From assembly GCF_038025025.1 (NCBI RefSeq), contig NW_027117338.1, positions 2,666,001 to 2,730,000 of the forward strand: 64,000 nt of DNA, given 5' to 3'. Positions 11,437 through 48,277 of the stretch are shown here, piece by piece. The notes beneath the pieces were generated by a model. It searched no databases. It was not told the DNA's origin and worked only from the letters and a program-made list of their open reading frames with translations. The position numbers were made by a program, and so were the translations under genes. Numbering within the stretch: position 1 is the stretch's first letter; each line of letters begins with the position of its first letter. The DNA comes from Phyllosticta citribraziliensis (lineage: Eukaryota).

Positions 11437-11442
11437 TATAAA
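11437..11442 (+). promoter_or_regulatory. Putative TATA box of the CFEM-like gene
   Basis: TATAAA about 100 bp upstream of the ATG at 11539. Confidence 0.45.
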
Positions 11443-11538
11443 GATGGAGGCGCTGCCCCTATCCTCTACGATGTTGTTCGTTCCCTTCAATCGCTACTAC
11501 GTATAGTTCCATCTACCGGTCGTCGTCGGGTTGTCAAT

Positions 11539-14634: not shown

Positions 14635-14858
14635 GTGTGGTGATGGTGCAGGAGATGGGTCCGTCGAAGTTTGCTGGAGGTGGTGAAGGTGACGGCGAGG
14701 ACGCGGGGGCCGTGCGAGAAAGCATCCAACCGTCCATCCACCTTTGGTTGTGCGCTGCCTGCCGTACAGCCGCGCCACACCAAGATACACACGGCTCAGT
14801 CAATTGAAGTCAAAAGCGACCATGTTTCCGCTCTCGATGCCTCCGTGTCAACTCCAAT

Positions 14859-16991: not shown

Positions 16992-17581
16992 TGTGGGCGG
17001 GACCAGCTACTCACTGATACGCTTGCTTAGCAGGCCAAAATGCTAGTGCTAGAAGAGGCATAAGAGACAGTAACCAGCGGCGAATGAGTAGGCTCTATAA
17101 GACGGGACTAAAATAACTACTAAACTAAGATAAGCCACTATCTAGCCATTATCTTATTATCTAAGTAGTATAAACTTAGGTATAAATAATAAATATAAAT
17201 AAATAAATAACTAAGTATTTAGTAGATAATAGTTTAACTAGATATAAAAGACTTTATTTATACTAGTTATACCTCTCTATAAGTAGCTATAAAAGGGGGT
17301 ATATAACTAACTAATCTACTACTAAAAATACTAATAATATAAGACCTCCTATTACTACTAAAGATACTAAGTTCTCCCTTACTTTTATTAGCTATTATTA
17401 TTACTACTAAACTATATAGAACTATAATTTCCTAAGATTCTAGAACTACCTATTATCTTATTATTATACTAGCCTAATCTCCTACTTATATCTAAGCTAA
17501 AATTATTACTAGGAATAGGAATAAGAATACTAAAATTAACCTTCTAGAGCTATAAAACTAGTACTAACTAGTAGTACTATC
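16992..17581. mobile_element. Solo LTR, family S (copy 1), with 4-bp TSD CTAG
   Basis: Starts TGTGGGCGGGACCAGC, the reverse complement of the end of the copy at 21251-21846. CTAG flanks it at 16988-16991 and 17582-17585. Confidence 0.8.
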
Positions 17582-18348
17582 CTAGATATTTTAGGCTATA
17601 GTACTTAGGTTTAATACTATTTTCCTAGTCTATAGATACCCTCTAATATAAGAAGTCCTAGTTAGCTATAAGGGACTAGAGTAAGGATCTTATTAATTTT
17701 TTAAAATTAATAATCTACTTTTATAAGATTTAGCACTATAGGGGGTTAAATTAAGTAGTAATAATATATTTAGTATACTAGATAATAGATAAAAATATTA
17801 CGCGCGTGCTATATAGTATCTAGTTTATATTTTATTATATTTAGCACTTAGTATTTACTACTTATATATATACTAGCTGTTTATAGCTAGCCTAGGAGTA
17901 GATAGTTATTCTACATAGGCTATATAATAACTACTCTTACTCCCTACCTATTAATTATTAGTAGTCTATATTAATTTACTCTACTAGGTACTATAATACT
18001 ATTAATAAGTCTCTTACTACTTATAAGAAGATAAGACTTATTATCTATCTCTTACTAATAAGTTTTCTTACTTTAATTATACCCTATATAGTATTAGGAT
18101 AAAATACTATATCTTTAGATATACTAGAAGCTCTAGGTATTATTATTTTTATAGTCCTAGCCTTAGAGGAGGTTAGTAAGTAAAATTATAAGCAAATATA
18201 GCTCTAGTTATAATAGAGACTTATTATCTTATTATATAATATAGTTAGGAACCTATATAATAGCTAAGAGTAGCTAGTCTACTATTAGTACTAAGCTATT
18301 AGCTACCTTCTAAGTTATACTAATAGCCAGCTAGTAGTTAGTTACTAC

Positions 18349-24300: not shown

Positions 24301-25208
24301 TAAACTATATATAAGCTTTAATTATAGTAAAGTAAGACTAAAGTTAAAATTAAGAGCTAAGGTATTAGCTATAGAATAGGTAAAATTAATAGAGGATATC
24401 TAGTTAAAGACTTAGTTAGTACTTATATTTATAAAGGAGAGATAAGTATACTAAGCTAATAAATACTAATATACTTATAATATTTAAGAGAATAACCTTA
24501 TCTTTATTAAAGTAAAGTATATAGATACTAGATACCCCTAGAAGCTTAGATAGCCTAATCTAGGACTATATTAAATAGACTCTATAAGAGGTAACTAGGT
24601 AATATTAGACTTACTATAAGATTCTTATATTATAAACTAATTTAATATAGAATAGTTATATTAATATAATAATAGGCTACTACCTAGTTAATAAGAGCTA
24701 CCCCTACTACTAGAGCTAAATAATAAGAGTAAAGAGGAGTAGTATATATAGGAGGTCCTAGATATCTAGATAAATAAATAAAGGGGAGGTATACTATAGT
24801 TTTAGGTTTATTAGATAGGATATCTACCTAATATAACCTAGTAGGATACTAATAATAGCTTATTTAATAGAGTAGCTAAGACTATCCTAGATTAATATTA
24901 GATAAATAATAAAAAGGGACTATATCTACCTAATAGCTAGTCCTTAGGTTAAGGACCTAAAGGGGAGGGGGGTAGTAAGATAAATTAATATAGATAGAGT
25001 AGATAGGTAATAGAGTAGGTATAAGGCCTATAAGGATATTAAGATATAGGGTTAGCTAAACCTTAGTTATATAGTAGTATATATACCTAAGTAAGCTATA
25101 GGCTAAGTTAGCTATAGCTCTATATCCTCCCTACTACTCTACCTTATAATTATTAATTATTAGCTAATTAACTTACCTTACTAGGTACTAATTTACTACT
25201 TTATAATA
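18349..25208 (+). mobile_element. Full-length Ty3/Gypsy chromovirus-type element F (RIP-inactivated)
   Basis: 233-bp LTRs at 18349-18581 and 24976-25208, 5-bp TSD ACTAC, PPT AGGGGAGGGGGG at 24961-24972. De-RIPed motifs: CCHC knuckle at ~19878-19919, RT KPGGGVRFCVDYR at ~21230-21870, YLDD at 22151-22162, integrase MDF at ~23840 and chromodomain at ~24730. Confidence 0.92.
21251..21846. mobile_element. Solo LTR, family S (copy 2, opposite orientation to copy 1), inserted in the RT of element F
   Basis: TGTGGC…CCCACA termini. 4-bp TSD ATAG at 21247-21250 and 21847-21850. Splits the de-RIPed motif VR|FCVDYR. Confidence 0.9.
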
Positions 25209-26571: not shown

Positions 26572-29500
26572 TTTTATAGTATAGCTTCTATAGATTAGGA
26601 GCTTCTTATTACCTAATTATATAGATATATAATATTAGTAGAAATTAGGTAAGTAAAAGGCTCTAGGATATTACTAACTAGTACTATTAATTTTACCCTC
26701 CCCTACCTAGCCTATTATTATATATTTACTATACTAGTTATTATTATTATACTAGTTATTATTTACTTATTTATCTTAAATACTATTTTATAAATACTAT
26801 ATAAGCCATGAGATTAATACTTATAATTTTATAGTAGGTTAGTATATAATTTATAGAATAATAATACTATACTATCTAATTTTAATTAGTTCTATTTTTA
26901 TTAAGTATAATATTATTCTAGGTATCTCTACCTATAAAGTATAGGAGATAAGCCTAGATAATTAGTTCTCTAGTTTTTCTATAATTATTTTATAGATACT
27001 AGATTATTAAGGTCTAATAAGTTTCTAGGATTATTCTATTATACTATAAGGTTAGTAGTTTATATAATAAGTTATAAAGGTAGATTTAGATATAATTATA
27101 TAATAAATTTAATAACCTAACTATAAGAACTATAAGCACTTCTAGTAGCTTAGGTAGAAATAGATAAGGAGGAAGAGGTATATTAGGAGGAGGATAAGAA
27201 AGAAGGATAAGGTCTTATAGTAGTAGCTACTCTCTAAGTAGCTAATAGTAGAGGCCTATAATTATATATAAAGGACTATTAATAATAGTCCTACTACTAG
27301 TAATTAATTTATAAGTACCCTTATAAGGTATAGGAATAGCTTAGGTACTATTTAGGCTATTTATTAGACTAGGAGTACCTCCTATAATTATACTACTATT
27401 AGGAATAGATAGTAATAAGATAATATAGCTAAGTTAAGCTAATTAGCTAATACTAGATACTATAGAAATAACTTTCCCCTAGATTAATAGAGAGTTATCC
27501 TTACTAATAGAAGCTAACTAATATTATATAAGAATAGTTTCCCTAATTTAGATAGTTAATACTAGTACTAAAGTAAAGGCTATAGTTTAGGGGGGATAAT
27601 ATATTATTATTCCTTAAGATATATAAGTACTTTTATACTATAGCTAGGAGTCTCTTAGAAGAATTTATACTAAAGCTAGTCTAGTACTATAAAACCCTAA
27701 TTAGCCTAGAAATTTACTACGGTACTAGTACTTATAAAGATATTTAAGATAGAAGTTTCTTAGTAAGAGAGAAATCTTTACTTACTTAGTACTAGTCTCT
27801 ACTAGCTAAGAGGGAAACTAGCTTAGGTATTATAGATAGTAAGGACTATTATAATAGACTAAATTCTACTACTTATTATAGTACCTATCTAGAGGTAGAC
27901 CCTTATATTACCCCTAGTACCTAACTTACTAGGTATACTATTAGGCTCTTAGGAATCTTACTATATTTCCTAATAAGCTATTATTATAATAGTCCTATAA
28001 AGAGCTATTATAAGACCTAAAAGTATAACTTATAAGTAAAGGGTAATTTAGGTTTAAGGAAGAGAAAAAGGAGGATATTCCTTCTTATAAATTAAAGTAA
28101 AGGTTTATTCTAAGAGAACTAAGAGATAAAAGTTAGTTATTAATATTAGGATATAAAGGGCTATATAAGGACTAAAGAATAGTCCTAGTTAAGGAAAAAT
28201 AGTATAGTTAGTTCCTTCTAAAATAGAAAGTAAAAAGGAGAAGGAAAAGTTAATACCTCTAGTAAATCTAGGGTACTTAACCTAGTTAAGATTTATATTA
28301 TCTCCTTTATATTTTAGACTTTAAGGCTACTCCTTAGAATAAGGATATAGTAGTATTATAGTCTATAGTCTAGATCTAAATAAATTAGTCTAGAAGAACT
28401 TTAATAGTAAGAGTTATAGTTAGGAGTTAGAGGTAATTTATAATTAATAAATAAGTCTTACTAATAGCTAGCTAGTAGATTAGCTTAGTACTAACTAGAA
28501 AGGTATATAAAGAGACCTCCTAGCCCTCTAGAATAGCTTTCTCTTTAGTAGTGATTTTTCTTTTATTAATTCTTTATTAAGGATTATTATTCTTCCTCTA
28601 TATATTTCTTATAACTAAGTATATAATAATTTAGTCTATATTATTATCTATTAGATAGCCTTTAGAAAATAGTCTAAGGTTATTTAGTTATAGTAGTATA
28701 AATTAAAAGGGTCTACTCCCCTTCCTTATACCTCTTATTTAATAGGGAAGTACCTCTCTATTATATAAGCTAATAGACTAGATATTAGGTTATATAGCTC
28801 TACCTACTATACTCTACCTTAGTATTTTATTATCTAGGCACATATAAGCCCTATATAATAAAGGATTAGGCTAGGTATATATAACTATCTTTAGGGGTTA
28901 TTATTTATAACTACTTATTAAGTACTATATCTAGATACCTAGATCTATTAGTTAAATACTAAGTAGCCTTAGTAATTACCTAATTAGGATTACCTAAAGT
29001 ATACTATTATAGCTTTACTACTCCTAGAGAGCTCTAACTCTCTAGTCTATTATTAAAAAGACTTATATCCTATTATTATATAAACTCTATAAGGGAAAAA
29101 TATATAAGTATCTTTTTTATATAATATAGAGGATACTCCTATAAACTATAAACTAGGAGAATATATTAGGAACCTAGAAGCTAATATATAGGCTACCTTT
29201 AATAAATATTAATAATCTACTATAAACTAGTAGATAGAGATGAATAAGCTTAATTAAAGGTTAGCCTAGGCTACTCTAGGTAATAATTATTACGCTTATA
29301 TGCCTCTAGCATTTCCTAGTATTTAGTATTTAGCCTTTACTTCTCCTATATATACTAGCTATACTTAGTTAGTTTAATAGCCTAGGAATAGATAGTTATC
29401 CTATATAGGCTATATAATAACTACTCTTACTCCTTACCTATTAATTATTAGTAGTCTATATTAATTTACTCTACTAGGTACTATAATACTATTAATAGGT

Positions 29501-32327
29501 TACTTACTACTTATAAGAGGATAAGACTTATTATCTATCCCTTACTAATAAGTTTTCTTACTTTAATCACGCCCTATATAGTATTAGGTTAAAATACTAT
29601 AGTTTTAGATATACTAGAAGCTCTAGGTATTATTAAGTTTATAGTCTATAGCCTTAAATAAGGTATATAAGTAAGATTTTAGGCTAAGAGGGTTCTAAAG
29701 GTAATAGAGATATAATATCTTATTATATTATATAGTTAATAACCTATATAATAGCTAAGAGTAGCTAAACTTCTACTAGTAGTATAGTACTATTAGCTAC
29801 TCCTTAAACCTTACTAGTAGCTAGCTACTAGCCTTTAGCTACTAGCCTATTATCTAGCCTATCTATTATCTCTAGCCCCCCTAGAGATAATAATCTAAAC
29901 CCCTAAGTTACTAGTAATAAGCTAATAACTTATAAGCTCTAGTAGTAGATACTAGACCTTATAAAGGTACTTACTACTTATAGTAAAGCTACTAACTAAG
30001 GTAAGATACTACTCTATAAGGTTTAGTACTAACTTACTAATCCTAAATATTTTAATAGTAAGGGTATACTAGAGGACTATTATATCTAGTATTAAAATAT
30101 TCTCTATAAGCTATTATTTAATAAGGCCTAGTTCCTAGATAATATAGCTAAGGCTATATATATCTAATCTTACCTCTTTAGTATAGCTATATATTCTACT
30201 ATTATTAGTACTAAAATTAAAACTAACCCTCTTAAGGTCTAGACTATTTTAGATAGCCTATATAGTATTACTAATATATATAGCTATACCCTCTTATAGC
30301 TTATCTAGCTATATTTAATTTCTAGCTCTAGTACTAGCTTTAAATAGGAGCTCTATATATACTAGATTCTTACTTATTAGGCTAGCTAGAATAGCCTAAT
30401 AAGTAAGGACTAGTTACTCTAAAGGATATATAGACTACTCTAGTTTATTACCTTATTATAGATTATAACTAACTATAGTAAGCTCTTAAGTATTCTAGAT
30501 TAGGTAGCTAATATTAGTAATATACTAGTAGACCTAGGCTTAAGCTCCTATCTATCTAGAAGCTAGGATAAGGCTATAGTTTATAGCCTAATAACTAGTA
30601 CTCCCTACTAGGCTATACTAGCCTTAGGTACTATAGTAAAGTATAAGGCTACCCTAAGCCCTTATAGTTATTAGTATTATAGTAATCTAGATTATTAGAT
30701 TAAGGATTATCTATATATAGACCCTACTAGCTAACTATATACCTTTATTTATAGTATAGTAGTTATAGAAGAGGTTATAGAGGAGTTTATAGATATAGTT
30801 AAAGAGCTAGAAATTACTATTATTAGTAAAGGTAATATTATAAGCTAGGATAAGATATTAGGAAATAAGTAGCCTCCTATAAAACTATAATAGGAGGTAG
30901 TACCTATAAGATAGCTATTAGTTATTTAATATAATTAGGGAATAGAGTTTCTAGTCCCTCTTACTACTCTTATACTATATATATTTATATATATCCTAAT
31001 ATACTACTAAGGCTAGTCTATATCCTTATTAATTCTAGATATACTAGTAGCCTATATATAAGCTAGTCCCTTAAGTATAAACTAGTTACTACTAGTACTT
31101 AGAAGTAGTAGCTATATAAGCCTTAGATAATTAGTAACTATACTTAAAGCTAGACCTAGTATCTTACCTATAAGCTTATTACTAGCTTATTATTTAGTTT
31201 AGTAGACTATAATAGTACTATATTATTTAATCTACTAGCCTTAATAACTATTACCTAGATTAGTCCTATATATAATTTATTTATTAGCCTTAAGTATATA
31301 TACTAGTTTAGGTTTATCCTAGACTTAGGATATATAGTATTAAGTATTAGAGGTATAAATTCTATAAAGACTTATTAGGACTACCTAAGGTTAGGAGCCC
31401 CCTAATTAGCTAGACCTTAGGCTATTTATAAGCTAATTAAGTCTTTACTACCTTCCCTAATAGTATTATAGACCTTATCTATAACCTTTACCTCTTCCCT
31501 ACTAAACTTAATACCTTTATTAATACTATTAACTATAAAGCTAACTCTCTCTTAGACTAGTAGCTAGTTATCTAACCTTTATACCTTACTAGTATTATTA
31601 CTCTTAAAAGATAATACCTCCTCTCTAAGGCCTACTACTATAACTCTAGTCTAGATCCTATATTTTAATAAACCTCTTAATTCTATTCTATTACTAGCCT
31701 TACTATACCTCTTAATAGGCTTTAAATAAGTTAATAAGCTATAATATCTCTACTATCTTAAATCTTATCCCTTAGAATACCTCTACTACCTAATATACTA
31801 TTATTAGTACTAAGGGCTATCTAAACTAGTTTTAGCTTCTATTAAGGAGACTATAAGTTATCTTAATAAGTAGAGTTAGGGCTAGGCTAGCCTATTAGCT
31901 AATATTATACTAATTAGTACTTTTAATACTACTATCCTCTACTAATAGTATAGCTATAAAGCCTACTTAGTCTATATCTTTACTCCTACTAATAAACTAG
32001 AGTATACTAAACTTTACTTAATAGAGCTAGTATCTTATACCCTAGCTAGTAGTAATAAGCTCTACCTATATTATACTATCCCCTATAAGTATTATAATTT
32101 ATTAGGTATATTCTATAATAATAACCTACTCCCCTATACCTATCCTTAGATAGACTTTAAGATTAAGTTAAAGAATAGTACTAAATCTAAAGACCTTAGC
32201 TATATACTACTCTACTATACTAATAATATCTAGTTAGTAGAGATTAAGTATTATATCTAGGAAGGTCTTAACCTTAGTATCTTAGAGTATAGTAAGATAG
32301 GTATAGCCTCCCCTATTTTATTAGTAT

Positions 32328-32750
32328 TGTCACGACTCGCAGATTTCTTGTTATATAGGTAAGGGCTAAAGGTAAACTGCTAGAGAATATATATATGTCT
32401 TAATTAAATCTAATAAGTTAAAAGAATAAAATATAAAAGATACTTACTACCTATATATTTCCTAGTCCTTTCTTTATACTATTCTACCTCTTATCCTTTA
32501 TATAAGGGTCCTTAGTTATTATTAGGTAAGTTATAAAGGTGAGGTATTAATGGGCTGTTATGTGGTATCTACCTAGGGCTGTAGTAGCTGGTACCAGGCT
32601 GTAGTGGCTGGTACTAGCCTGTAGGTTTTAGCCTGAGCTGTAGTAGGCTGCTGCCTAAGGTGAGGCTTATACTTCTTATGACTGTGTGATGCTGGGTTTG
32701 TCTATGCTGGCCCTGATGCTTGCGTAGGCGCGTGTACGCCTATTATGATA
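32328..32750 (-). repeat. Family C LTR in inverted orientation
   Basis: Reverse complement of 37252-37698 (TGTCACGACTC… versus …GAGTCGTGACA), 24 bp shorter. Confidence 0.9.
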
Positions 32751-35563
32751 CTAAGCTTAATATTTAATAAGCTTTCCACCGCATTCGTCTTACTAAGGAT
32801 TCTGAAGATAAAACTACCTTCTATACAAGATATAGCTTATTTAAATACTGTATCTTACTATTTAGATTAAGTAACAGACCTATAGCCTTTTAATATTTTA
32901 TTAACCAGGTTCTCTTTAAGTATTTAGATAATTTTATTGTAGCTTTTATAGATAATATACTTATTATCTCTAAAGACCCTGCAGAGCATAAGGAATAAGT
33001 AAAAAAAGTACTAGTAAGACTATAAAAAGTAGGACTATAGGTAGATTTAAAGAAAAGTAAGTTTTTAGTTATTTATATAAAGTTCCTTAGATATATTATT
33101 TCTATAGAAGGTATTTAGATAGACCTAGATAAGGTAGAACCTATATAAAACTAGCTAATACTAAAAACCCTTAAAGCTCTTTAATCCTTCCTAGGTTTCT
33201 ATAATTTCTACTAATAATTTCTCCCTAACTATAGATAAATTAGCCAGCTATTAGAGAAACTATACTCTAAGGTAAAATAGTAATAACTAGGACCTCTAGA
33301 AGAAGAGGTAATTTAATAACTTAAGAAGCTAATATATAGTAATATACTCCTAGCTAACTATAATCCTACTCTTAATACTTATATAGAGACTAATATAAGT
33401 AATAGAGTTACTACTAGCATTTTAATATAGCTCTAGTAACCTTTATATAATTAGAAACTAGTAGTATTCTACTCTAAGGTAATAGTAGATATAGAACTTT
33501 ATTATAGAATATCTAATAAAGAACTGCTAGCTATTAAGAATAGACTAGAAGAATAGAGACTAATACTTATTAGCCTTAAAAAACCTTTTCTTATAATTAT
33601 AGACTATTAGGTATTAGAGTACTACTCTACTAAATAATAACTTAATTAATAATAAGCTAGATAGTCTAAGTTTTTTATAGAGTTCTATATATAATTCTCT
33701 TATTAACTAGGAAAGGAAAATATTATTACTAATTACCTTACTTAAAAATAAGAAGACCTAAAGACTTAAAAAGAAAAAGTAAAGGCTATATAAGAGATAT
33801 ATCTTATCCTACTAGAGACTATTATCCCTCTTTCTATTTTAAAATAAGAACTTCCTCCTCTAGTATTATTTTTAGATAAACTCCTCTATATAAACTAAGA
33901 AGATTTTAAATTAGAACTCTAAAGATAGAAAGCCCTCTTATAAGACCTTAAATAAAGAAATAGTTAGGAACTAAAAGATGGTCTTTTACTATAATATAGT
34001 ACCCTCTTTATACTAGATTATAATAACCTCTATATAAGAATACTTAATACTTTATATACTACCTATATAACTACCTATCCTAGTATTATAAAGATGTAAA
34101 AACTCCTTAAGTAATATTACTACTAGCTAGCCATAAATTACACAATTAATATTTATAGGTAAGGATACTATATTTACTACTAAATAAAAGAGTTTTATAA
34201 TAAAGACCTAGGCCTTCTATAACCCCTAGAGATTCCTACTTAACCCTAGTAATACCTAGCTATAGATTTTAAAGAGATACCTAAAGACTAAAAAGGCTAT
34301 AATATAATCCTAGTTATTATAGACTAGTTAAGTTAAAGAACCTTTAGCTTACCTTATATAAAGAAGATTAATACTAAAGGAGTCTTTAGGCTCTTTTATA
34401 AATATATCTACTATATTTATAGAAACCCTAAGTCTATCCTATCTAACTAAGGCCCTTAGTTTATCTCAGCATTTATAAATAAACTATATAAGCTAACTAG
34501 TATAGAGCAGCATTTTAACTTATCCTACTACTCTTAGACTAATAATATTATAGAGATTATTAATTAGTATCTTATATAAAGATTAAGACCTTCTATTAAT
34601 TACTTTTAAAATAATTAGTCTAATCTTCTACTATTAATAGACCTTATATAAGTAATACTTCCCTATAAAGCTACTAGACTTTTACCCTTTAAGATTAAGT
34701 TAGGATATTCCCCTTAAATATACTATAACTAGTAATAATAAACTAAGACCCCCTAGTAACTAGAAAAGATGGCTTATATAGTAGTATAAATACTATAAAA
34801 AAGAAGATAAGAAGCTTTTAAATTTATAAAGAAACTCATTCTTAAATCCTAAGAGTATATATACTAATAAGCTAATAAATACCATTATATACCAGACTTT
34901 ACAGTTAGAGATTATATCTATATTAAGAAAACAGGATAGTCTACTAATTAGCTAAACCTTAAATTAGACTTCCCTAATACTAGACCTTTTAAGATTATAG
35001 GAATAGAAGGATCCTCCTATATCCTTAATCTTCCCTTATATATAAAGATAGTTAACCTTTTCTATACTAATAGGCTATATAAGGCTAAACTAGAATAGCT
35101 TCCTAGTTAGGAATATACTAAACTAGAACCTAAGATTATTTAAGATAAGCCTAAGTAAGAAGTAGACTATATTTAAGCTAGTTAAGTCTTATATAGGAAG
35201 CTTTAATATTAAGTTAAATAGACTAGATATAACTAAGATAACTAGTAGTATAATATAAGTTCTTTTAGTAGTATACTATAGAAAATTAAAGAATTCTACT
35301 TATTACACCCTACCATAGTAGGACTACTAAAAAATCTAGAAAAATAGAAGACTACCTTCCTCTAAGAAGAACTATAGATTAAAATAGAAAGTAATAATAA
35401 AATAAGTTACTTAGGCCCATAGTAAATATTATAAAGATATAGAAAGTAGACTAATTAGTTTACTATCTACCCTTATATAAATACTATTAACCTTAACTTC
35501 TACTCTCTAGTCTCTCCTTTTTACTACTTATCCCCTACTTCCCTCTTCTTTACTTTCTATCCT

Positions 35564-36810
35564 TTACTTCCTTCCTTTTCCCTTCTTCTTATTATAACTA
35601 TTATTATATAAGATAGTCTCCTCTAGATCCTCTAGCTTATTAAGTAGGATATCCTACTTAGCTAAAGCCTAATTAGTTTAATCCTCTACCCTAGCTTAGT
35701 AGTATAAGTTCTAGAACTCCTCTATATAAATTTTATCTTTATACCTCTTATAATAAGCAGGCAGCTTAGCACCCTTTAAGTTACTAATAGTATAGTCTAA
35801 GTTACCTATACCTTAAAGGTAGTTAGCGCAGCAGCCCTATAAGAAACTAGGTAGGTAGTAATAACTAATAAACGCACAAGTATTAGTATTATTATAATAC
35901 TTAGTATAGCTAATAGGGTCATTAATTCTAGTATACTAGATAAGAAAAGTATTATATAAGCTAGCTTAAGTTTTAACTAATAAATAGTTAAATTACTAAG
36001 TAGAAACCATAATATATAAGTAAGGTATACTATTACCTAAGGCCAAGATATATTTAGTGTACTCTTATACTTCAGAACTACTAAGGCGCGCCTATATGGT
36101 TAGTTAGATAAGAATCCCTTATATTAGTAAGATAAACTTACTTGTGTAATACTCTCTATATTCTTATAAGGGATATAAAGTATTAACTTAAAGTCCTACT
36201 TAATAGGCGCCTTATTAGAGCTAACTAGTAATACTATAATATAAATCTTACTATTACTACTATTATGTGAAGTAGTAGGTAGTAAGTACTTAGCTACTAG
36301 AACCTAATAAGCCACTAGATTATAATGATGGTATATATAAGTAGGCTCTTTACCTTCTTCCTCTAAAACAGGCTGTATAATAGTAAACTAGTAGTAATGT
36401 AGTATAATGGGCTGGTTAGTAGCAGGCTATATAGCCATAGATAATAAACCTCACGTAATAACTAATAATGCTAATTAAGTAGAACCTAATACTATAGTAT
36501 ACTATAGGTAAAGTGATAAGCCTATAGCTATTCCTGGCTAAATAAGTAAAGCCTAGCCTAACTAAGTCTTTATATAAGTATCCTCCTCTATAATTATATT
36601 AGTTAGTAAGATGGGATAATAAAGTGGTAAAACCTGGATATATAATGCTACTTAATAGCCTAGATAATAATTAGTAATAGTTAGAGATAGAATTAAGGTT
36701 TACTTATCTTAGGACTCTATATGATGGTCCTTATAGATACTGCTAGCTAAAATAGCTCTCTAAGTAAGTAGTAACTATAATAGATTATAAATAATGCTAT
36801 ATAATAATGA
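35564..36810 (-). pseudogene. RIP-mutated antisense, intron-containing gene inside element C encoding a DUF3716/Zn-cluster-like protein (start approximate)
   Basis: Surviving codons GGC TGC TGC GCT AAC (GCCAN, 35836-35822) and TGT GCG TTT. Intron 36141-36092 (GTAAGT, CTAAC, TAG) puts the upstream EEE codons in frame. The frame ends KKKGKGRK* at 35564. Confidence 0.7.
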
Positions 36811-37390
36811 CTTAATACTATAACTCTTATATAATAGTAATAAGTCCTAATAGACTAGACTATAATAAGTAGTAGATATATTAAGTATATAGTAGCCAGG
36901 AATATCTACTTTACTATTAGTAGGGTATAAATTATTTAAATTATTAGAACCTTTATGCATAATAGTTAGTTTACTAGATTATAGCTAAATTAGACTAGGA
37001 TAATAATATACTTTAATAGGGAGCTTTAGATATAGCTAAGTAAGATGGTAACCTTCTATAGGTTATATAGTAAAAGAGATGGTAATAGAAAGAGATAGTA
37101 TAGTAGTAGACCTAGACTAATAATTATACTTTATAACTATATAGAATACTTAAATTACTAAATTACTACTACTATACATTATAAGTCTATACCTATATAA
37201 GCACCTATAGCTACTAATTCCCATAATTTCAGCTTCTCTTTAGGGGGGGCATATTATAATAGGCATATATACACCTATATAAGCACCAGGGCCAGTATAG
37301 ACGAACCTAGCATCGCGCGGTTATAGGAAGTATAAGCCTTACCTTAGGCAGTAGCCCACCTGCTATAGCTTAGGCTAAAACCTGCAGGCT

Positions 37391-37450
37391 GGCACCAGCC
37401 ACTATAGCCTAGTACCAGCCACTATAGCCTGGCACCAGCCACTGCAGCCC
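37391..37450 (+). repeat. Three copies of a 20-bp tandem repeat (GGCACCAGCCACTRYAGCCY) inside the family C LTR
   Basis: Directly visible. The inverted LTR copy (~32576-32615) has only two units. Confidence 0.9.
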
Positions 37451-39372
37451 TAGGTAGATACTATATAATAGCCCATTAATACCTCACCTTCACAACTTAC
37501 CTAATAATAACCAAGGACCCTTATATAAAGGATAAGAGGTAGAATAGTATAAAGGAAGGACTAGGAAATATATAGGTAGTAAGTATCTTTTATATTTTAT
37601 TCTTTTAACTTATTATATTTAATTAAGATATATATGCATTCTCTAGCAGTTCACCTTTAGCCCTCACCTGCGTAATAAGAAATCTGTGAGTCGTGACACT
37701 ACTTATAAGACCTCCCTAGTACTAATAACCCCTAGTACTAATAATAATACTAAACCCTACTACTAGCTAGTAAGCTTTTACTTTATATATATAAAGTTTA
37801 GAAGCTTACTCCTATAGATATTACTCCTAATAATAAACTATTCTTTATATATTATTTACTCTTAGCTAATACTACTAATAATAATAAGATAAATAAGTAG
37901 AGGAGATAAGTAGGTAAGCTAGACTTACCCTTCTTAGTTAATAGGTATAGGAATATCTTTATAGATAGCTATCTTATTATCCTAACTAAATTAAGACCTC
38001 TCCTTATTTAATATATCTATAAGTAGCTACTTACTAGCTATCCTAGCTATACCTAGCTATATAACCTACTTATACCTTATTTTTAGTTTCTATACCTTAC
38101 CTAGTTAATTACCTAAGTTATTAATAACTATCCCTTATATATCTAGGTCTATAAAGCTTACCTAGTAATCTCTAGCTAGCTATAGCCTCTACCTATTCTA
38201 TTATATCCCTAGTAATATATTACTATAGATTTTATAGGTCTACTACCCTATAGTAAGGATATAGATATAATCCTAGTAGTAAATAACTACTTTAGTAAGA
38301 TATATTACTTTATTACTATAAATACCTTAGATAATAGAACTATAGCTAAAGCTATAGGCTATATACTTATAGACTATATCTTTACTATTTATAGTTTCCC
38401 TCTCTTAATTATTTTAGACTATAGTAACTAGTTTATCTCTTACTTATAGGAGGTCCTTACTTATATTATTAGTATTAGTATAAAGCTATCTACTAGCTAC
38501 TATCCCTAAACTAATAGCTAGACTAAATAAGCTAACTAGAACCTTAAGAACTACTTAAGATAATTTATTAAGGTTCTATTAGAATAATTAGAAAGTACTA
38601 TTATCCATTATATAGTTTACTACTAATAGTATACTATATAAGAGCCTTAATAGCTACTCTCCCTTCTATATCTATTATAGCTATAAGCTATAATTTAATT
38701 TTAATACTAAAGCTACTATCTATAATATAAGTAGACTAATTATAGATACTTACTCTATATAATTATAAACTATATAGGCCCTTACCTAAACTATATAATA
38801 AGTTTAGGAAGAAATAAGATAAAGCCTATTAGTTATATAATAATAGATAGCTATCTAAGTAAACTAATATTATTAGGATTATATAGTAGAGCTAGGTAAG
38901 TATATATTTATTTATACTAAGTATACTTATATACTTTATAGCTAGCTAGCCACCCTAGATTACTATAATAATAGCCTATACTATATACTAGATATATATA
39001 GTAATTAGGCTATATTATAACTCCCTATTAGGTCTTAAACCTATAATAAATTTAATATCTCTTAACTTATTATTACTAGTAATAACCTATTACCTAGCTA
39101 ATAACTAGCTATTAGGCCAGCACTCTAAGATAATAATAAGGATACTAAATAGGAGGTTAAGGAAATTATTAGCTACTAGATCTTAGCTAATAGTAGACTT
39201 TAATTTAGGGTCTAATAGACTAATTACCTACTAGACTATATATTTTATAATATAGATAATAGATAGTTTAATACTACTTATAATATTATCCTATAGTATT
39301 ATAAAAGATACCTAGACCTATAACTACCTATTAGCTAGACTTATAACTAAGTAATAAGGTTATTACTTATTA

Positions 39373-39375
<3 letters not shown>

Positions 39376-39405
<30 letters not shown>
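39376..39405 (+). repeat. G30 homopolymer within the polypurine tract of element B
   Basis: 30 consecutive G a few bases upstream of the 3' LTR. Confidence 0.9.
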
Positions 39406-39406
<1 letters not shown>

Positions 39407-39619
39407 GGGGTAGTATTATACTTATATACCTCTAGTATTTCCTAGTATTTAGTATTTAGCCTTTACTTCTCCTATATATACTAGCTATACTTAGTTAGTT
39501 TAATAGCCTAGGAATAGATAGTTATCCTATATAGGCTATATAATAACTACTCTTACTCCTTACCTATTAATTATTAGTAGTCTATATTAATTCACTCTAC
39601 TAGGCACCATAACAGTAGC

Positions 39620-42600
39620 TTATAACTATATAATACTAGGTTTATCTATACTAGTATTATTACTTATATAGGCGTGTAAATGCCTATTATAATATGCCCC
39701 CCCTAAAGAGAAGCTAAAATTATAAGAATTAGTAGCTATAGGTGCTTATATAGGTATAGACTTATAATATATAGTAGTACTAGTTTAGTAATTTAGGTAT
39801 TCTATATAGTTATAAAGTATAATTATTAGTCTAGCTTTATTATTATACTATCTTTTTCTATTACTATTTTCTATTACTATATAACCTATAAAAGGTTACT
39901 ATCTACCTTAGCTATATCTAGAGCTCCCTACTAAAGTATATTATTATCATAGTTAAATTAGCTATAATTTAGTAAACTAATAGTTATATAAAGGCTTAAA
40001 AGAGCTCTACTCTACTAAGAGCAAAGAGAGTAGTCCTTTACTAGTAGAGTATTAGCTAGTTACTTATTAGGATTCCTTACTATTATATAATACTCATTAT
40101 ACTACTCTATTATTATATAGTATTATTTATAATCTATTATAGTTACTATTTACTTAGAGAGCTATTCTTACTAGTAGTATCTATTAGGACTATTATATAG
40201 AGTAGTATTATAGTAAGAGAGTCTATTTTCTTATAGATTATTACTAACTTATTCTAGTTCCTATAGGACTACCTCATATCTAGGTAGCTTTATATATTTA
40301 GGTTTTACTACTTTATCACCCCATCTTACTAACTAAAATAATTATAGAGGATACTAGGGTTACTTTTATAACTATATAGTTAGGCTAGGCTTTACTTATA
40401 TAGCTAGGCTTATTACTTTACTAGTACTATCCTATAATAGCTAGTTCTATAGCATTACTAGTTCTTATATAAGATTCTTTATTATTAGCTATATAGCCTA
40501 CTATTAGCTAGCTAGCTTTGACTATTATTATACTATATTATTATTATTTTACTATTATATAGCCTATTTTAGAGGAAGAAGAGGAAGAGCCTATTTATAT
40601 ATACTATTATTATAATCCTATAGTATATTAGGTTCCTATAGCTAAGTACTTAGTACCTATTAGTTTATATAATAGTAATAATAGTAATAATAGTAAGATC
40701 TATATTATAGTATTACTAGTTAGTTCTAATAAGGAGCCTATTAAGTAGGACTTTAAATAGATACTTTATATACCTTAAGAGAATATAGAGAGTATTATAT
40801 AGATAAGTATTCCTTACTAATATTAGGATTACTTAACTAACTAGTATAGGCTTACTTAGGTAGCTATAAAGTATAAGAGCGCGCTAGATATATTTTAGCC
40901 TTAGAAGATAGCCTACCTTATTTATATATTATAGTTTTAGCTAGGAACTTTAACTACTTATTAGTAGAAACCTATACTAGCTTATATAATACTTTTCTTA
41001 TCTAGTATACTAGAATTAATAACCCTATTAGCTATACTAAGTATTATAATAATACTAATACTTATATATTTATTAGTTATTACTACCTACCTAGTTTCTT
41101 ATAGGGCTACTATACTAACTACCTCTAGGGTACTAGTAACCTTAACTATACTATTAGTAACTTATAAGGTATAAAGCCGCCTACCTAGTATAAGAAGTAT
41201 AGTAATAAGATTTATATAGAAGATTTCCTTAGTCTATATAATTAGGCTATAGCTTAGGATTAGACTAATTATACTTTAGCTAACTAGGATATCTTATAAG
41301 AGGAGTAAGAGGAATAGAATAAGACTATCTTATATAATAATACTCTTATTAAGAAGAAGGGAAAAGGAAAGGGAAAGAAGTAAAGTAAATAAATAGTTAG
41401 AAATAGTACTAAATAGTAAAAAGGAGAGACTAGAGAGTAGAAATTAAGATTAATAGAATTTATATAAAGGTAGATAGTAAACTAATTAGTCTACTTTCTA
41501 TATCTTTATAATATTTACTTTAGGCCTAAGTAACTTATTTTATTATTACTTATTATTTCTATTTAGGGCTCTTTCTATAAGAAGGTAGTCTTCTATTTTT
41601 TAAGGTTTTTTAGTAGTCCTACTATAGTAGGATAAGAGGAGTAAAACTCTTTAATTTTCTATAGTATACTATTAAAAGAACTTATTTTATACTACTAATT
41701 ATCTTAGTTATATCTAGTCTATTATACTTAGTATTAAAGCTTTCTATATAAGACTTAGCTAGCTTAAATATAGTCTACTTCCTATTTAGGCTTATCTTAA
41801 ATAATTTTAGGTTTAGGTTTAGTATATTCCTAACTAGGAAGTTTCTCTATTAAGGCTTTATAGAGTCTATCTATATAGAAAAGGTTAACTATTTTTATAT
41901 ATAAGGGAAGTTTAAGGATATAAGAGGATCCTTCTATACCTAAGATTTTAAAAGGTCCTATATTAGGAAAATCTAGCTTAAGGTTTAGCTAATTAGTAGA
42001 CTATCCTATTTTCTTAATATAGATATAATCTCTAACTATAAAGTCTAGTATATAATAGTATTTATTAGCCTATTAGTATATATACTCTTAAGATTTAAGA
42101 ATAAGATTCTTAGTAAACTTAAAAGCTTCTTATCTTCTTTTTTATAGTATTTATACTATTATATAAGCTATCTTTTCTAGCTATTATGGAGCTTTAGTTT
42201 ATTATTACTAGTTATAATATATCTATAGTAAATATCCTAATTTAATCTTAAAAGGTAAAAGTCTAGTAGCTTTATAAGGAAGAGTTACTTATATAAGGTC
42301 TATAGAAGGTAGAAGATCTAATTAATTTTTCTAGAAGTAATTAATAAAAGGTCTTAACCTTTATATAAGATACTAGTTAATAATCTCTATAATACTATTA
42401 GTTTAAGAGTAATAAGAGGAATTAAAGTACTATTTAATACTAGTAAGCTTATATAGTTTATTTATAAATACTAAAATAAACTATAGGCCTTAGTTAGAAA
42501 GGATAGATTTAGGATTTCTATAAATATAGTAGATATACTTATAAAAGAGCTAAGAGACTCCTTCTATATTAATCTTTTTTATATAAGGTAAGTTAAAGGT

Positions 42601-44980
42601 TTATTAACTTAATTAGTCTACTATAATAAGGATTATATTATAGCCCTTCTAATTCTTAGATATTTCCTTAAAATCTATAGCTAAATATTACTATAGATAA
42701 GTAGGAATCTTAAGAGGTTATAAAAGGCCTAGGTCCTTATTATAGAACTCCTTAGTTTAGTAATAAATATAGTATCCTTATCTATAGATATCTATTATAT
42801 AATTTATAGTAGGCTAATAGTAATATTATTTAAGGAGTTTATATATCTTTATAATACTAGGGTATATAGTTATATATATAGTATATAAAGTATTAAGAGT
42901 TCTTATATAGAGGTTATCTTAATCTAGTATAAAGAGAGTACTATATTATAGTAAGAGACTATTCTTTAATTCCTAATTATTTCTCTACTCTAGGTCTTCT
43001 AGTTAAGCTTATTATCTCTAGGGTTTAGATTAAGAATCTTCTCTATTTATATAGAGAAGCTTATCTAAAAATAATACTAGAGGTAGAGGTTCTTATTCTA
43101 TAACTAAGAGAGGAATAATAGTCTCTAAAGGAATAAGGTATATCTTTTATATAGCTTTAGCCTTTTCTTTCTAAGTCTTTAGGTCTTCTTATCTTCTTAT
43201 AAGGTAATTAGTAATAATATTTTCCTTTCTTAGCTAATAGGAGAATTATATATAGAATTCTATAAAGAATTTAGACTATCTAGCTTATTATTAACTAAGT
43301 TATTATTTAGTAGAGTAATACTCTAGTACTTAGTAGTCTATAATTATAAGAAAAGGTTTTTTAAGGCTAATAAGTATAGGCCTCTATTCTTCTAGCCTAT
43401 TCTTAATAGCTAGTAGCTCTTTATCTAAGATACTATAATAAAATTCTATATTAGCTATTACTTTAGAGTAGAAGGCTACTAGTTTCTATTTATATAAAGG
43501 TTTTTAGAGCTATATTAAAATACTAGTAGTAACTCTATTACTTATATCTATCTCTATATAAGTATTAAGAGTAGGATTATAGTTTACTAGGAGTATATTA
43601 TTATATATAAGCTTCTTAAGTTCTTAAATTACCTCTTCTTCTAGTAGTCCTAGTTATTACTATTTTACCTTAAAGTATAGATTCTCTAATAGCTAGCTAA
43701 TTTATCTATAGTTAGAAAGAAATTATTAGTAAAAGTTATAGAAATCTAAGAAGGATTAAAGAGTCTATAGAGTTTTAGGTACTAGCTAGTTTTATATAGG
43801 TTCTACTTTATTATAGTCTATTTAAATACTATCTATAGATATAATATATCTAAGAAACTTTATATAAGTAATAGAAAACTTACTCTTCTTAAGATCTACT
43901 TAAAGTCCTACTTTTTATAGTCTTACTAGTACTTTTCTTACTTATTCTTTATATTCTATAGGGTCTTTAGAGATAATAAGTATATTATTTATAAAAGCTA
44001 CTATAAAATTATCTAAGTACTTAAAGAGGACTTAATTAATAAATTATTAAAAGGCTATAGGTCTATTACTTAATCTAAAGGGAAGGATATAGTATTTAAA
44101 TAAGCTATACCTTATATAGAAAGTAGTCTTATCTTTAGAATCTAGTATAAGGTAGATATAGTAAAAAGCTTATTAAATATCTAGCTTTATATAAATCTTA
44201 CCCTTTCTAATATATTAAAGTAATTCTAAAATAAGAGGAAGAGGGTATAAATCTTTAGTAGTTTATTTATTAAGCTATTAATAATCTATATAAAACCTCT
44301 ATCCTCTACTAGGCTTTTTTACTACTAGAATAGGATAAGTAAAGGTAGTAAAGCTCTTAGTAATAAAGCCCTTTTAGATATTCTCTATAATATATTCCTT
44401 TATAGCTTATAGCTATTCTAGAGATATTCTATAGAGAGGACTAGGAGGAAGTTCTAGTAGTCCCTTATATATTAGAGATATCTTATAATTAACTCCTATA
44501 TAATAGGGTAGAAGCTTATTTAACTCTATCTTAGAGAAGATATCTTAGAAATCCTTATAATTAGAAGATAATTTAGAAGCTAGTAATTCCTCTATTTCTT
44601 TATCTTTAATAGCTTATTAAACTTATATAAGGTTTATAGTATAAATATCTCTTAGTATAATTTATATTTTATAGATAGAAATTTTAAAAGTATCTTAACT
44701 TTAGAATTTAATTTCCTTAATAACCTATACTAAGGAAAGAAGGTATTTATTAAAGTTTTTATTTCTATAATCTATATCTACCTAGTATTCTTTCTATAGT
44801 ATATTACTTTATATAGAAACCTTTAGTAGTTATAAGAGATATTAAAAGGATTAGTTAACTAGTAGCTATCTCTAGACTAGTTTATATTATTTATAGTTAG
44901 GAAGTATATTATACTAGTTAAAAAACTATTACCTAAGAATTATATTATTCTAACTAATATTATAAATAAAAGTATATATA
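39620..44980 (-). mobile_element. Gypsy element C2, a diverged relative of C: partial 3' LTR, PPT, extra gene, chromodomain, integrase, RNase H, RT and part of the protease
   Basis: Reverse-complement similarity to 32751-37330. PPT complement TGCCCCCCCTAAAG from 39695. Minus-strand AF[VI]DD at ~43985-43998 and protease-like DVILG at ~44932-44946. Confidence 0.88.
40110..41383 (+). pseudogene. Second copy of the antisense DUF3716/Zn-cluster-like gene, in element C2 (start approximate)
   Basis: De-RIPed NAFLIQRxGIDDPVGCTKCxNNxxACAFVGCRRLPGFLQGCCANCLWGxGNLDCT at ~40988-41150. A 47-nt intron at 40803-40849 restores frame; a probable second intron lies at 40213-40257. The frame ends KKKGKGKGKK* at 41383. 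Confidence 0.7.
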
Positions 44981-47900
44981 TATTATACTAATAGATTAAT
45001 AGACTTGCTAAGTAGTAAGTCCTAAGAGATAGTAGACTAGGCCTAGGGAGGGCCTATAGTATATATACCTAAGTAAGAAGTATATAAAATAGTACTAGGA
45101 CTTAACCTTAGTAAGGATAAGGTTTTATCTCTAAATATATCTAATTATCTATTATCCTATTTAAATTAATACCCTATAGAATACTAATCTTATATTTAAA
45201 ACCTTCTCTTTACTATAGCTAAATTAACTTATAATAAAATAGTTATAACTTATAGTTCTAATAATACCCCTACTAACTTAGGTCCCCCCTAGGATAGTAC
45301 TACCCCTATAATAGAATAAGGCTAGGGTAGCCCTTTAGGTACCCTAAGCCTACTAGCTTTATAGAACCCCTCTAACTAAAATATATAGAAAACTTATAAA
45401 GAGAATACTTACTAGGATTCTCTTATAAGGGAAACTAACTTAGCTACCTACTAGGGTAATAATAGTTAGATACTAAAGGAATACCTTTATAATACTAATA
45501 TAAAGATTACCTAGTTTATAATCTATCTTACTAAAATAACCCCTAAGATACTAGAATATAACTACTATAAATATATAATTAAGGTATATAAGATAGCTAA
45601 GGGAGCCCTTAAGGACCTTATAGATACTATAGAGCCTTTCTATATAGGGAGTAGAGGTAACTCTACTAGCTAATAGAACCTTATAGGCTTAACTAAGTCT
45701 AAGCCTAAGAAGCTAAAGGATATTAAGCTATAATCCTTAGAGTACTAATTTATAATTATAGAAAATATCTTTAAAATCTATAATATAATAGGTAATAAAG
45801 AAGCTACTTAGTAGTAGCTTAATAAAGCCCTCCTAGAAATAGAAGGACTTATATAGAAGATACTAGAATAGCTAAATAAGAAACTACCCTTATTATAGGA
45901 GAAGTATAAGTTATTTATCTTAGACTAGCTCTAGAATCCTATACTATTATAGTTTATAATATATAATAACCTATAACTTATAAGATAAGGAGAAGGATAA
46001 GCTTTTAAAGTAGTCTAGGAAATTATTATCTTATATATAGCTTATACTTAGTTTACTACTCTCTATAGAGAAGGGTAACTAGGCCTATCCTTATAGTATC
46101 CTAAGGTATACTAAAAGGTCTAAATTAAGCTTACTAAGCTTAGGGCTAAATCTTATATAAAGAAATTAAAGGATATATTTACTAAGGTTAAAAAGGCTAA
46201 AGAACTCCTTAAATAGACTATATAGATAAATTAAGCCCCTAGGGGCCCCCTTTTAAAGTATACCTAACTAACTACTAGGGTAGCCTAGAGGGGTATATAC
46301 CTAGAGAAGTATTAGAATATATCCTAGATAATAGGTTATTCTAGACTATTACTATCTAATAAGGCTCTAAGCTAGTTAGGTAGGTTCTAGAAGGTAGATA
46401 ATAGTAATAATAATAGAGACTATAAAAGCTAGTTTAATTAGAAGAAGAATAATTTTACTATTAACTAGGGGAAAGGTTAGCCCTAGTTATATATCTCTCC
46501 TTATTAGTATAGCTAGGGCTAGAGACTTAAGAAATCCTACCCTACTAGCTCCTTATTATAGTATAGATAGACTATAATATAGGTATAGAAAGGTACTAAC
46601 TCCTAGCCCTTCTTAATAGATAGACTAACTTAAATATTATAGATAAAAGTTTAGCCTAGAGGCTAGTCTTCCTAAAGGCTAGTCTCTCTCTAGAGTAGAA
46701 ACTATTTAGGCCCTTACTAGCTAATAATTTACTACTTATTATTAGTAACCTATATTTAGTAATAGTAATAATCTAAGACTCTTAGGGGAATTACTAAACT
46801 ATTAGACCCTAGATCTTCTAGTTAGCCTAATTACCTATATAAGGCCTAATTATAGATACCCTATAGCTATATAAGGTAGAAGTAAGGGTAGATTATAGGT
46901 AGATATCCCTCTATTAGAAATCTAATTAAGAAAAGCCCCCTAAGGTAGTTAATATATCTATTCTAGTATATAAATTAGGTTCTAAGGGTTTAGTCTACTA
47001 TATATATACCTTTAGGTTCTATATATAAGACCCTTAGCTAGTAATTACCTCTATTAATAAATAGCTACTAATAGACCTAGGTAGTAAGGATATAAAGATA
47101 CTCTACTCTAGCTCTAGGCTAGATCTAAATAAGCTTCCTAAGCTATACTAGGAGTTCTAAGATATATTTAATAATAAGCTTATAGGTATACTAGTATAGA
47201 ATATATAGTATAATTATATAATTAACTTAGAGGATAATAAGACCCCTCTATAATTACCTATCTATAATCTCTTAGAGAATAAACTTATAATCCTATAAGA
47301 ATATCTTAAGAAGGTACTATATCTTAGCTAGATCTAGCCTAGTAAGTCCCTAATAGGGGCCTTAATCCTTTTTATACCTAAATTAGATAGGTCACTATAG
47401 TTATATTTTAATTACTAAGATCTAAATAAGATTATAGTTAAGAATTAATACCCTCTTCCCCTAATCTTAGAAATTATAGATAGGATTTTAAGTTCTAGTA
47501 TCTTTATAAAGCTAGATCTAAGGGATACCTACTACTATCTATATATTTACTATAGAGATAAGTAGAAGACTACCTTTAAAATATAGTATAGCTATTATAA
47601 GTATAGGATTATATCCTTTAGATTAGCTAATACTCCTACCTTATTCTAGGCCTATATCTACTATACCCTTATAGATCTAGTAGATATAACCTATATAGTT
47701 TACTTAGATAATATCTTAATCTACTCTAAGGATAAGGTAACCTACTAGGGCTATATTAAGAAGGTACTAGAGTACCTCTATAAATAGGGCCTATATATAA
47801 AAATATTAAAATATATATTCTATATAAAAAGGGTAGAGTTCCTTAGCTTTATCCTTACCCCTAAAGGGGTTATAATAGATATAAACTAGGTCTCAACTAT

Positions 47901-48277
47901 TATTAATTAGCTAGACCCTAAAAGCTATAAGGATATCTAAGTATTTCTAGGCTTTATAAACTTCTACTAGTAGTTTATCTAGAACTACTCTAGCTAGGTC
48001 TACCTACTAATATAGTATATAATAGATATAGCTATAAGGGGAAACCTATATAAAAAGGACTAATTAAATAGTACTAGCCTTAGTTCTACCTAGCTACTAT
48101 CTAGAAGGTATTCTAGAGGCTATAAGAGGCCTTTATAGAGGTATCTCTTCTCTAATACTATAATCTATACTAGCTACTAATACTAGTTATAAATATATCT
48201 AATTATATATATATAGGTATACTACTATAGCTAAAGGACTATAAGGATAGAGCTAGATACTAGTACCTAATTACCTT
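44981..48277 (+). mobile_element. Gypsy element D: probable 5' LTR (~44981-45236), gag, protease, RT and RNase H, cut off by element E
   Basis: De-RIPed PILFVPKPDGSLRLCxDYRDLNK at ~47360-47430, YLDD at 47701-47712, and WHPIAF at the junction with E. LTR ends are inferred from RIPed TG…CA termini only. Confidence 0.8.

Follow-up and report, generated by a model that had tools for sequence, protein, structure and literature searches.

Some long terminal repeat (LTR) retrotransposons carry an extra gene that is placed between pol and the 3′ LTR and is read antisense to the rest of the element. The closest described case in fungi is brtn, the antisense gene between pol and the 3′ LTR of Boty, an element of Botrytis and Sclerotinia (Zhao et al., 2011, Virology 417:248, as cited in the available portions of PMC7264820, PMC8365987 and PMC4227169). 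Plant genes in the same position and orientation, termed aORF-3R, include gene23 of maize Grande and those of rice RIRE2, Silene Retand and Phaseolus PvRetro13; in the available portion of the source, some of their products are nuclear, their function is not known, and they are conserved across copies much like other element proteins (PMC7264820). The same portion reports no similarity of aORF-3R to known protein families and recommends looking for antisense transcripts that are spliced (PMC7264820). The locus described here lies in a window of 64,000 nucleotides (the whole stretch of DNA that was analysed) from Phyllosticta citribraziliensis, contig NW_027117338.1. The window holds two copies, C and D, of a chromovirus-like Ty3/Gypsy family in which a spacer of 1.9 kb separates pol from the polypurine tract (PPT). 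That spacer is probably a former accessory gene, one likely to have been antisense and spliced. An antisense gene between pol and the 3′ LTR is a layout already known in fungi (Boty) and plants, and the present case is one more member.

The comparison with these systems has two sides. What is shared with Boty, as the available portions of the sources describe it, is an ascomycete Gypsy element, a pol with a chromodomain (at most chromodomain-like here) and an antisense extra gene between pol and the 3′ LTR; the likeness is one of description only, and here the antisense orientation is likely and both copies are dead through repeat-induced point mutation (RIP). The plant aORF-3R genes share with this locus the position from pol to the 3′ LTR and the antisense orientation (likely here), but they belong to another kingdom and mostly to non-chromovirus lineages, and the available portion of the source describes none of them as Cys-rich or as a member of DUF3716, a fungal protein family taken up below. 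The features of the two copies are as follows (positions are counted from the first letter of the window; RT, reverse transcriptase; ORF, open reading frame; indel, insertion or deletion):

32318 to 32750, minus strand: inverted LTR fragment, found by self-BLAST, abutting the truncated RT of copy C
32753 to 35450, plus strand: what is left of pol in copy C, from the middle of RT through RNase H and integrase to a chromodomain-like C-terminus, placed by Pfam and codon periodicity
35453 to 35563, no strand: non-coding gap between the pol end and the stop of the accessory ORF, with no periodicity and a 1-nt indel at 35535
35564 to 36091, minus strand: predicted exon 2 of the accessory ORF, 175 codons plus TAA, with a Cys-rich core (35714–35962), an acidic stretch and a basic tail (35567–35590)
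36092 to 36141, minus strand: putative 50-nt phase-0 spliceosomal intron (GTAAGT, CTAAC, TAG), read directly and placed by the phase-switch model
36142 to 36700, minus strand: predicted upstream exon or exons of the accessory ORF, with a weaker signal and with the 5′ limit and start codon undefined (an earlier note placed the start at 36810)
36701 to 37241, no strand: rest of the spacer, possibly the promoter or 5′ region of the antisense gene and cis elements before the PPT
37242 to 37249, plus strand: PPT-like AGGGGGGG, from the C–D alignment, directly before the LTR
37252 to 37708, plus strand: 3′ LTR of copy C, at least 457 bp, 84% identical to the inverted 32750–32318 (457 columns)
39633 to 44187, minus strand: copy D, same family, inverted, 82.9% identical to C over 4617 columns
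40803 to 41383, plus strand: copy D equivalents, namely the intron-like stretch 40803–40849 (47 nt), exon 2 40850–41380 (177 codons) and stop 41381–41383

Both copies lie in the AT-rich part of the window (positions 17001–64000), where 1-kb bins have a GC content of 0.22–0.33 and the whole has 0.26. This part is saturated by RIP: TpA/ApT is 1.80 and (CpA+TpG)/(ApC+GpT) is 0.07, against 0.50 and 1.30 in the GC-rich, genic positions 1–17000 (1-kb bins of 0.50–0.61). The coding test splits copy-to-copy differences into RIP-type and non-RIP-type and reads codon periodicity from the latter, which comprise transversions and transitions outside RIP context; only the two copies were compared, and they differ by 492 transitions and 233 transversions. 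The frames tested, 35567–36091 and 36142–36700, were fixed beforehand by an earlier note on this DNA that had proposed a spliced antisense gene in a Gypsy element. Pol is the positive control. Its transversions are distributed 17/4/74 over codon positions 1/2/3, its transitions 37/53/14 in RIP context and 23/16/119 outside it, and 199 of its 264 non-RIP differences are at third positions. Because the non-RIP differences in pol concentrate at position 3, the divergence of C and D predates RIP and took place under purifying selection, when both were active elements.

The same signature, in weaker form, is present in the spacer. In the two accessory frames, 70 of 134 non-RIP differences fall at predicted third positions (p = 5e-6), as do 41 of 77 transversions taken alone (p = 2.5e-4). 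By the codon positions of the earlier note, the counts are 13/17/37 in exon 2 (10/10/33 in its core, 35603–36052) and 12/22/33 in the upstream exon. The negative controls, counted by coordinate modulo 3 (c%3), show no periodicity, with 8/9/6 in 35453–35566 and 16/24/23 in 36701–37250. Indels follow the same boundaries: none separates C from D in pol or in exon 2 over 525 nt, and those between 36584 and 36100 measure 6, 12, 6, 12, 9 and 3 nt, all multiples of 3 (the first five are in 36584–36267, and the 9-nt indel of the upstream exon is a tandem-repeat slip). The indels of the flanks measure 11, 7, 11, 1 and 1 nt in 36701–37241 and 1 nt at 35535. The ratio of non-synonymous to synonymous change computed on transversions, dN/dS(tv), is ~0.36–0.38 in the accessory minus frames vs 0.09 in pol (0.38, p = 0.0045, for the upstream exon in the minus frame of the earlier note), and constraint on the accessory ORF is weak. 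A once-coding accessory gene in the two frames proposed earlier is well supported: the protein-coding signature is found in both, and the frame switches at the proposed intron. De-RIPing from the two copies, with C or G preferred where they differ by a transition, leaves nearly all stops in place, those of pol included.

The position of the intron can be read from the same differences. The upstream minus frame finishes with ...NIESITQ at 36142, and the frame below 36091 continues to KKKGKGRK and a stop; a canonical 50-nt intron had been proposed to join the two. Its sequence is present, and the wobble phase changes across it, being c%3=2 below ~36090 and c%3=1 above ~36142. When the breakpoint is left free, all non-RIP differences together place it best at 36130, inside the intron. 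The log-likelihood (lnL) of the model with this intron is -116.2, compared with -122.0 for the only candidate intron on the plus strand, at 36275–36318, -128.5 for a uniform model, and -130.1 and -144.4 for the single-phase models. The stretch 36092–36141 itself carries 10 non-RIP differences per 50 nt with no periodicity, and the flanking exons carry 6.4 and 3.8 per 50 nt. The pattern GTAAGT..CTAAC..YAG occurs 4 times in the 94 kb-strands of the AT-rich part and once on the minus strand of 35000–37400; copy D has ATAAGT..CTAAC..TAG, 47 nt long, in its intron-like stretch. No joint at 36141/36092 was found in contigs of four sequencing runs (contigs cannot show absence), and no RNA run is listed among the public runs containing the spacer stretch. 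One contig, from a run only guessed to be RNA, bridges 36075–36211 unspliced and has adapter ends.

A perfect TACTAAC branch-point-like string followed by TATAG lies further upstream, on the minus strand at 36590–36606, and both copies retain it. The antisense gene could have had a second intron here, which would explain the weaker, shifting periodicity upstream of 36350.

The literal features on which the antisense proposal was first built are all present on the minus strand where they had been placed: GGCTGCTGCGCTAAC at 35836–35822, TGTGCGTTT at 35878–35870, and a tail, AAG AAG AAG GGA AAA GGA AGG AAG TAA (KKKGKGRK and stop), that ends at 35564. If the ORF is antisense, its 3′ end and that of pol are convergent. 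Exon 2 has 67% residue identity between C and D and, in the minus frame, contains stops at 12 of 175 codons in C and 13 of 177 in D; both copies of the accessory gene in the window are dead, with stops put in by RIP. The Cys pattern that had been proposed for the product is borne out in part. Direct reading yields only three Cys codons, at residues 72, 87 and 88 of exon 2 (175 codons), with G-C-C-A-N-[Y] at 35836–35819, and all three are TGY in C and TAY in D (Y, pyrimidine), the direction of RIP, which makes them ancestral Cys if read on the minus strand. The remaining Cys are TAY (Tyr) in both copies and are thus inferred, not seen. Codons of the Tyr/Cys/His type (Y/C/H) make up 17 of the 83 in the core, which puts it in the top 4.5% of all 83-codon windows.

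With TAY taken as former Cys, the core reads C-x2-C ... G-x-C-x-N-C ... C, a pattern that resembles the DUF3716 domain. The PF12511 profile gives no match in the accessory-ORF frames or cores, which is a low-power test after RIP. A relaxed G-x-C-x-N-C codon motif, in which TAY may stand for Cys, carries little weight: of its 5 occurrences in the AT-rich 47 kb, 3 are outside the family. On its Cys pattern, the accessory protein may have been a member of DUF3716, an assignment to be taken as tentative. DUF3716 (PF12511) is a fungi-only family with at least one DNA-binding member and with transposon-borne members: Neurospora crassa NCU05718 is a direct binder of double-strand TTAGGG (PMC4650311), its Fusarium graminearum orthologue PSC58 is said to carry DUF3716 (PMC10776026), and REP9-1 and REP9-2 are DUF3716 genes on a class II transposon (REP9) of Zymoseptoria, according to the available portion of PMC8232023. 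The accessory ORF differs from these proteins in having no PF12511 match and only three direct Cys codons. None of the papers found on DUF3716 or PF12511 connects the domain with LTR retrotransposons.

The earlier note had also seen a loose resemblance to Zn(II)2Cys6 clusters, and this did not hold. Such clusters have the spacing C-x2-C-x6-C-x5-12-C-x2-C-x6-8-C. With TAY read as Cys, exon 2 gives C-x2-C-x6-C (residues 62, 65 and 72), a loop of 15 residues and then C88-x2-Y91-x8-Y100. The spacing fails at the central loop, which falls outside this range, and Pfam gives no PF00172 match; basic residues after the second Cys are also absent.

The spacer is found in 2 of 2 copies in the window, and tblastn with the spacer product matches C and D only. 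Contigs from the sequencing run of another organism match it in 124 pieces that cover 28 of the 30 bins of 35400–36900, with differences that are mostly transitions. Since it occurs in both copies and is covered by contigs from other organisms' runs, the spacer is part of the family and not a private insertion. Runs labelled as five other organisms, along with a surface metagenome, also contain exact 31-letter words of 35300–37300 (shares of 0.05–0.35), and these could be either old RIP-mutated copies in close relatives or the product of saturating RIP that makes copies converge. Two RIP-tolerant degenerate-pattern scans of metagenome contigs gave 0 matches. In IMG/VR, a query with an intact fungal-type pol returned 8 loci, Gypsy-like or pararetrovirus-like, among which no comparable spacer was seen, and 6 extra ORFs tested there gave no PF12511. 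The three closest of these loci (L001–L003) have only ~75–930 bp after pol.

A number of observations weigh against a former antisense and spliced accessory gene, some touching the existence of a gene and others its strand. The coding evidence comes from two copies only. Pfam gave 0 families at E<=10 for the spacer product (three minus frames of C, three frames of D and two 83-residue cores), HMMER with a profile of exon 2 from C and D gave 0 at E<=1e-3 among 1.84 billion representative proteins, and a word-indexed search of 5.8 billion proteins with exon 2 gave 203 candidates, none at E<=10. The Pfam zeros have little power because the chromodomain of the same copy was missed and its rve fell under the cut-off, and a Cys domain of ~60 residues that has lost most of its Cys is not expected to score. 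The zero homologs across all searches are also what would be seen if the spacer had never been a gene and its periodicity, in-frame indels and intron- and Cys-like strings reflected chance, non-coding constraint or repeat slippage in RIP-shaped DNA. TAY, AAY and TAR codons are abundant after RIP, 3 of the 5 relaxed Cys motifs in 47 kb lie outside the family, the 9-nt indel is a slip, stop-poor frames elsewhere have no Pfam match, and the upstream exon signal is weak alone (7/21/14, p ~0.03). This explanation is nevertheless improbable, given that the frames and the intron were set before a test that returned p = 5e-6 with clean flanks and a strong positive control, that the phase switch falls on the intron, and that exon 2 is free of indels over 525 nt in comparison with flank indels of 1 to 11 nt. 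It is likewise very unlikely that the spacer is a foreign insertion carried passively, such as a piece of a DNA transposon with a DUF3716 gene or a host gene picked up by transduction. The DUF3716 genes on class II transposon REP9 in Zymoseptoria (available portion of PMC8232023) would make a source of this kind conceivable, and the closest intact Gypsy contigs, L001–L003 among the 8 loci, leave no room for such a gene after pol; yet the spacer stands in the same place in both diverged copies, and the C–D alignment shows no terminal repeats or boundaries of a second element. The C–D differences within the spacer show purifying selection, so the spacer was retained through the active life of the lineage.

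The tests of strand conflict, and we regard the antisense strand as the likely one for the accessory gene. A coding remnant on the sense (plus) strand would be an ORF3- or env-like gene, in frame 0 over ~35568–36091 and in the frame of pol over ~36142–36700 or further. It draws on the wobble transversions of exon 2, which are synonymous:non-synonymous 15:6 on plus vs 10:11 on minus (in the pol control, 62:12 in the true frame and 35:39 in the false partner), and on dN/dS(tv) of exon 2, which is 0.29 in the plus partner frame (p = 4e-4) vs 0.36 on minus. In 36203–36652 (7/21/14), the least-changed phase is position 1 if read on minus and position 2 if read on plus, the usual pattern being that of the plus reading; a 9/2/12 pattern in 36801–37000 and a dN/dS of 0.43 (p = 0.02) for the plus frame of 36701–37240 point the same way. 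There is also a plus-strand intron-like stretch at 36275–36318 (44 nt, GTAGGT..CTAAT..CAG) that is partly kept in D. The phase switch, however, is at ~36130 and not at 36275–36318 (delta lnL 5.9); it coincides with the canonical minus intron, and there is no plus GT..AG candidate at that place. Stops in exon 2 number 12/175 on minus vs 22/174 on plus in C and 13/177 vs 24/176 in D, and upstream 11/186 vs ~30/193 (counted by eye from the translation); those on plus come in double and triple runs and exceed the 10.7% of pol (92/862). The force of these counts is reduced by pol, where they fail to separate the strands (92 vs 91), and by the rank of the minus frame of exon 2, whose 12 stops in 175 codons put it no lower than the 7th percentile among all frames. 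At the first two codon positions, the purine share, which is unaffected by RIP, is 0.57/0.56 on minus and 0.54/0.52 in pol, and the 0.43/0.43 on plus is atypical. Upstream, dN/dS(tv) is 0.56 on plus vs 0.38 on minus; in pol, where this ratio separates the strands clearly, it is 0.09 vs 0.31. Pfam found 0 families in the three sense frames of the spacer, and the available portions of the literature consulted on accessory ORFs held no sense-strand case in a fungal Gypsy element. BLOSUM62 scores of replacements and a likelihood on purine/pyrimidine (R/Y) codon classes (~1 bit per 100 codons) did not separate the strands even in pol. A sense-strand remnant is unlikely. The antisense spliced gene proposed by the earlier note is the most likely model: the place of the intron, the stop counts, the purine share and the precedent of Boty and the plant elements favour it, and the synonymy test and the asymmetry between positions 1 and 2 go to the plus strand.

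On the antisense reading, the spacer would once have coded for an accessory protein, on which purifying selection acted for as long as the family was active. The gene would have been antisense to gag-pol, with a promoter of its own in the ~0.5 kb beside the PPT, at least one intron of 50 nt and a 3′ end that converged on the end of pol. An antisense intron survives retrotransposition because the sense genomic RNA cannot splice it. The predicted product would have at least ~360 residues, among them a core rich in Cys, an acidic stretch and a tail of Lys, Gly and Arg. Its composition suggests that it could have been a zinc-dependent nuclear protein that bound nucleic acids and acted in the cycle of the element itself, on targeting, transcription or silencing. 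The role of trans-activator, anti-silencing or targeting factor that had been proposed for it is conjecture. That the product was a zinc-binding, DNA-binding protein of DUF3716 type, carried as a spliced antisense accessory gene by an ascomycete chromovirus lineage and possibly homologous to brtn, is rather doubtful.

Accessory genes of LTR retrotransposons are poorly understood, and the available portion of the source names no aORF-3R with a known function or family (PMC7264820). A fungal case whose product had a Cys-rich core and a basic tail would supply a concrete hypothesis, that of an element-encoded DNA-binding factor. If the DUF3716 reading were true, it would give the first assignable biochemical activity for an aORF-3R (sequence-specific DNA or telomere-repeat binding, as in NCU05718) and would connect DUF3716 with transposons of class I as well as class II. 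The split into RIP and non-RIP differences, combined with codon periodicity, recovers frames and even the position of an intron where homology tools fail, and it may serve elsewhere. Both copies in the window are dead, so nothing here bears on the present biology of the host.

The element that carries the spacer is a Ty3/Gypsy remnant, as had been claimed. In the plus frame 32753–35401 of copy C, translated with X at stops (the X-read frame), Pfam finds RVT_1 at 1.9e-13 (residues 2–112), RT_RNaseH_2 at 2.1e-8 (183–274) and RT_RNaseH at 8.4e-8, and rve at 0.0024 (residues 497–588), under the Pfam cut-off; the order in this single frame is RT, RNase H, integrase. The copy C pol as a query matches 62 Gypsy polyproteins of the 'longer' length class at E<=1e-5, with a lowest E of 1.6e-85, and none of the 'near' class at E<=1e-90. 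For the chromodomain, there is no PF00385 match in copy C pol, and BLASTP does not align it to that of another protein, P0002; an E-V-x-x-I ... Y-x-V-K-x-x-x-Y string is seen by eye near 35150–35300 in the X-read frame, and the C-terminal GPF/Y module of the integrase aligns to P0002 at E=0.07. The codon periodicity of non-RIP differences in pol extends to ~35450, and from there to AGGGGGGG at 37242–37249 is ~1.8 kb, the spacing given in the earlier note. The segment 37103–37252, at the PPT end of the spacer, is almost invariant between C and D.

Copy C is 5′-truncated inside RT, beginning at 32753. The only other copy of its LTR repeat is the inverted one at 32318–32750; there is no direct LTR pair, and copy C is without its 5′ half. 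Given the inverted LTR partner at the truncation point, a simple 5′ deletion seems less likely than an inversion or an insertion that was nested or recombined. Copy D carries the whole 1.9-kb spacer and shares only the first ~60–70 bp of the LTR of copy C. It extends 5′ of the C–D match at 44188–44560 (minus strand), where N-terminal motifs of RT are readable, and is more complete than C; Pfam gave 0 families in 44188–46587, on the N-terminal side of its RT.

Pol remnants of other Gypsy families, also degraded by RIP, lie at 21959–24688, 47509–47988, 37934–38518 and 53739–53999. They have 27–38% identity to the X-read pol of copy C by tblastn, and one of them is an integrase piece between copies C and D. 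A counterpart of the spacer gene was not detectable in these remnants.

The frames with few stops elsewhere in the window, 18624–19538, 61856–62470, 20603–21277 and 52131–52745, have no Pfam matches. Another such frame is 35815–36399 on the minus strand, the frame of the upstream exon continued through the intron, whose 6–7 stops per 175 codons are among the lowest in the window; it has no coding signature, with a dN/dS on transversions of 2.04. Since this frame is poor in stops and yet without a coding signature, stop-poor frames in RIP-mutated DNA are not evidence of a gene.

A repeat of ~200 bp is present in four copies, at 39414–39612, 29288–29486, 17838–17996 and 61591–61751; the first two are 96% identical to each other and 84–86% identical to the other two. 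The copy at 39414–39612 sits at the break of the LTR of copy D, beside a long run of C at ~39380–39414, and the repeat may be the end of another element family. Inside the LTR of copy C, a patch at 37290–37470 retains much of its C and G and contains a repeated CTGGCACCAGCCAC-like motif; together with 32001–33000 it accounts for the bins of lowest AT content in the AT-rich region (GC 0.32–0.33).

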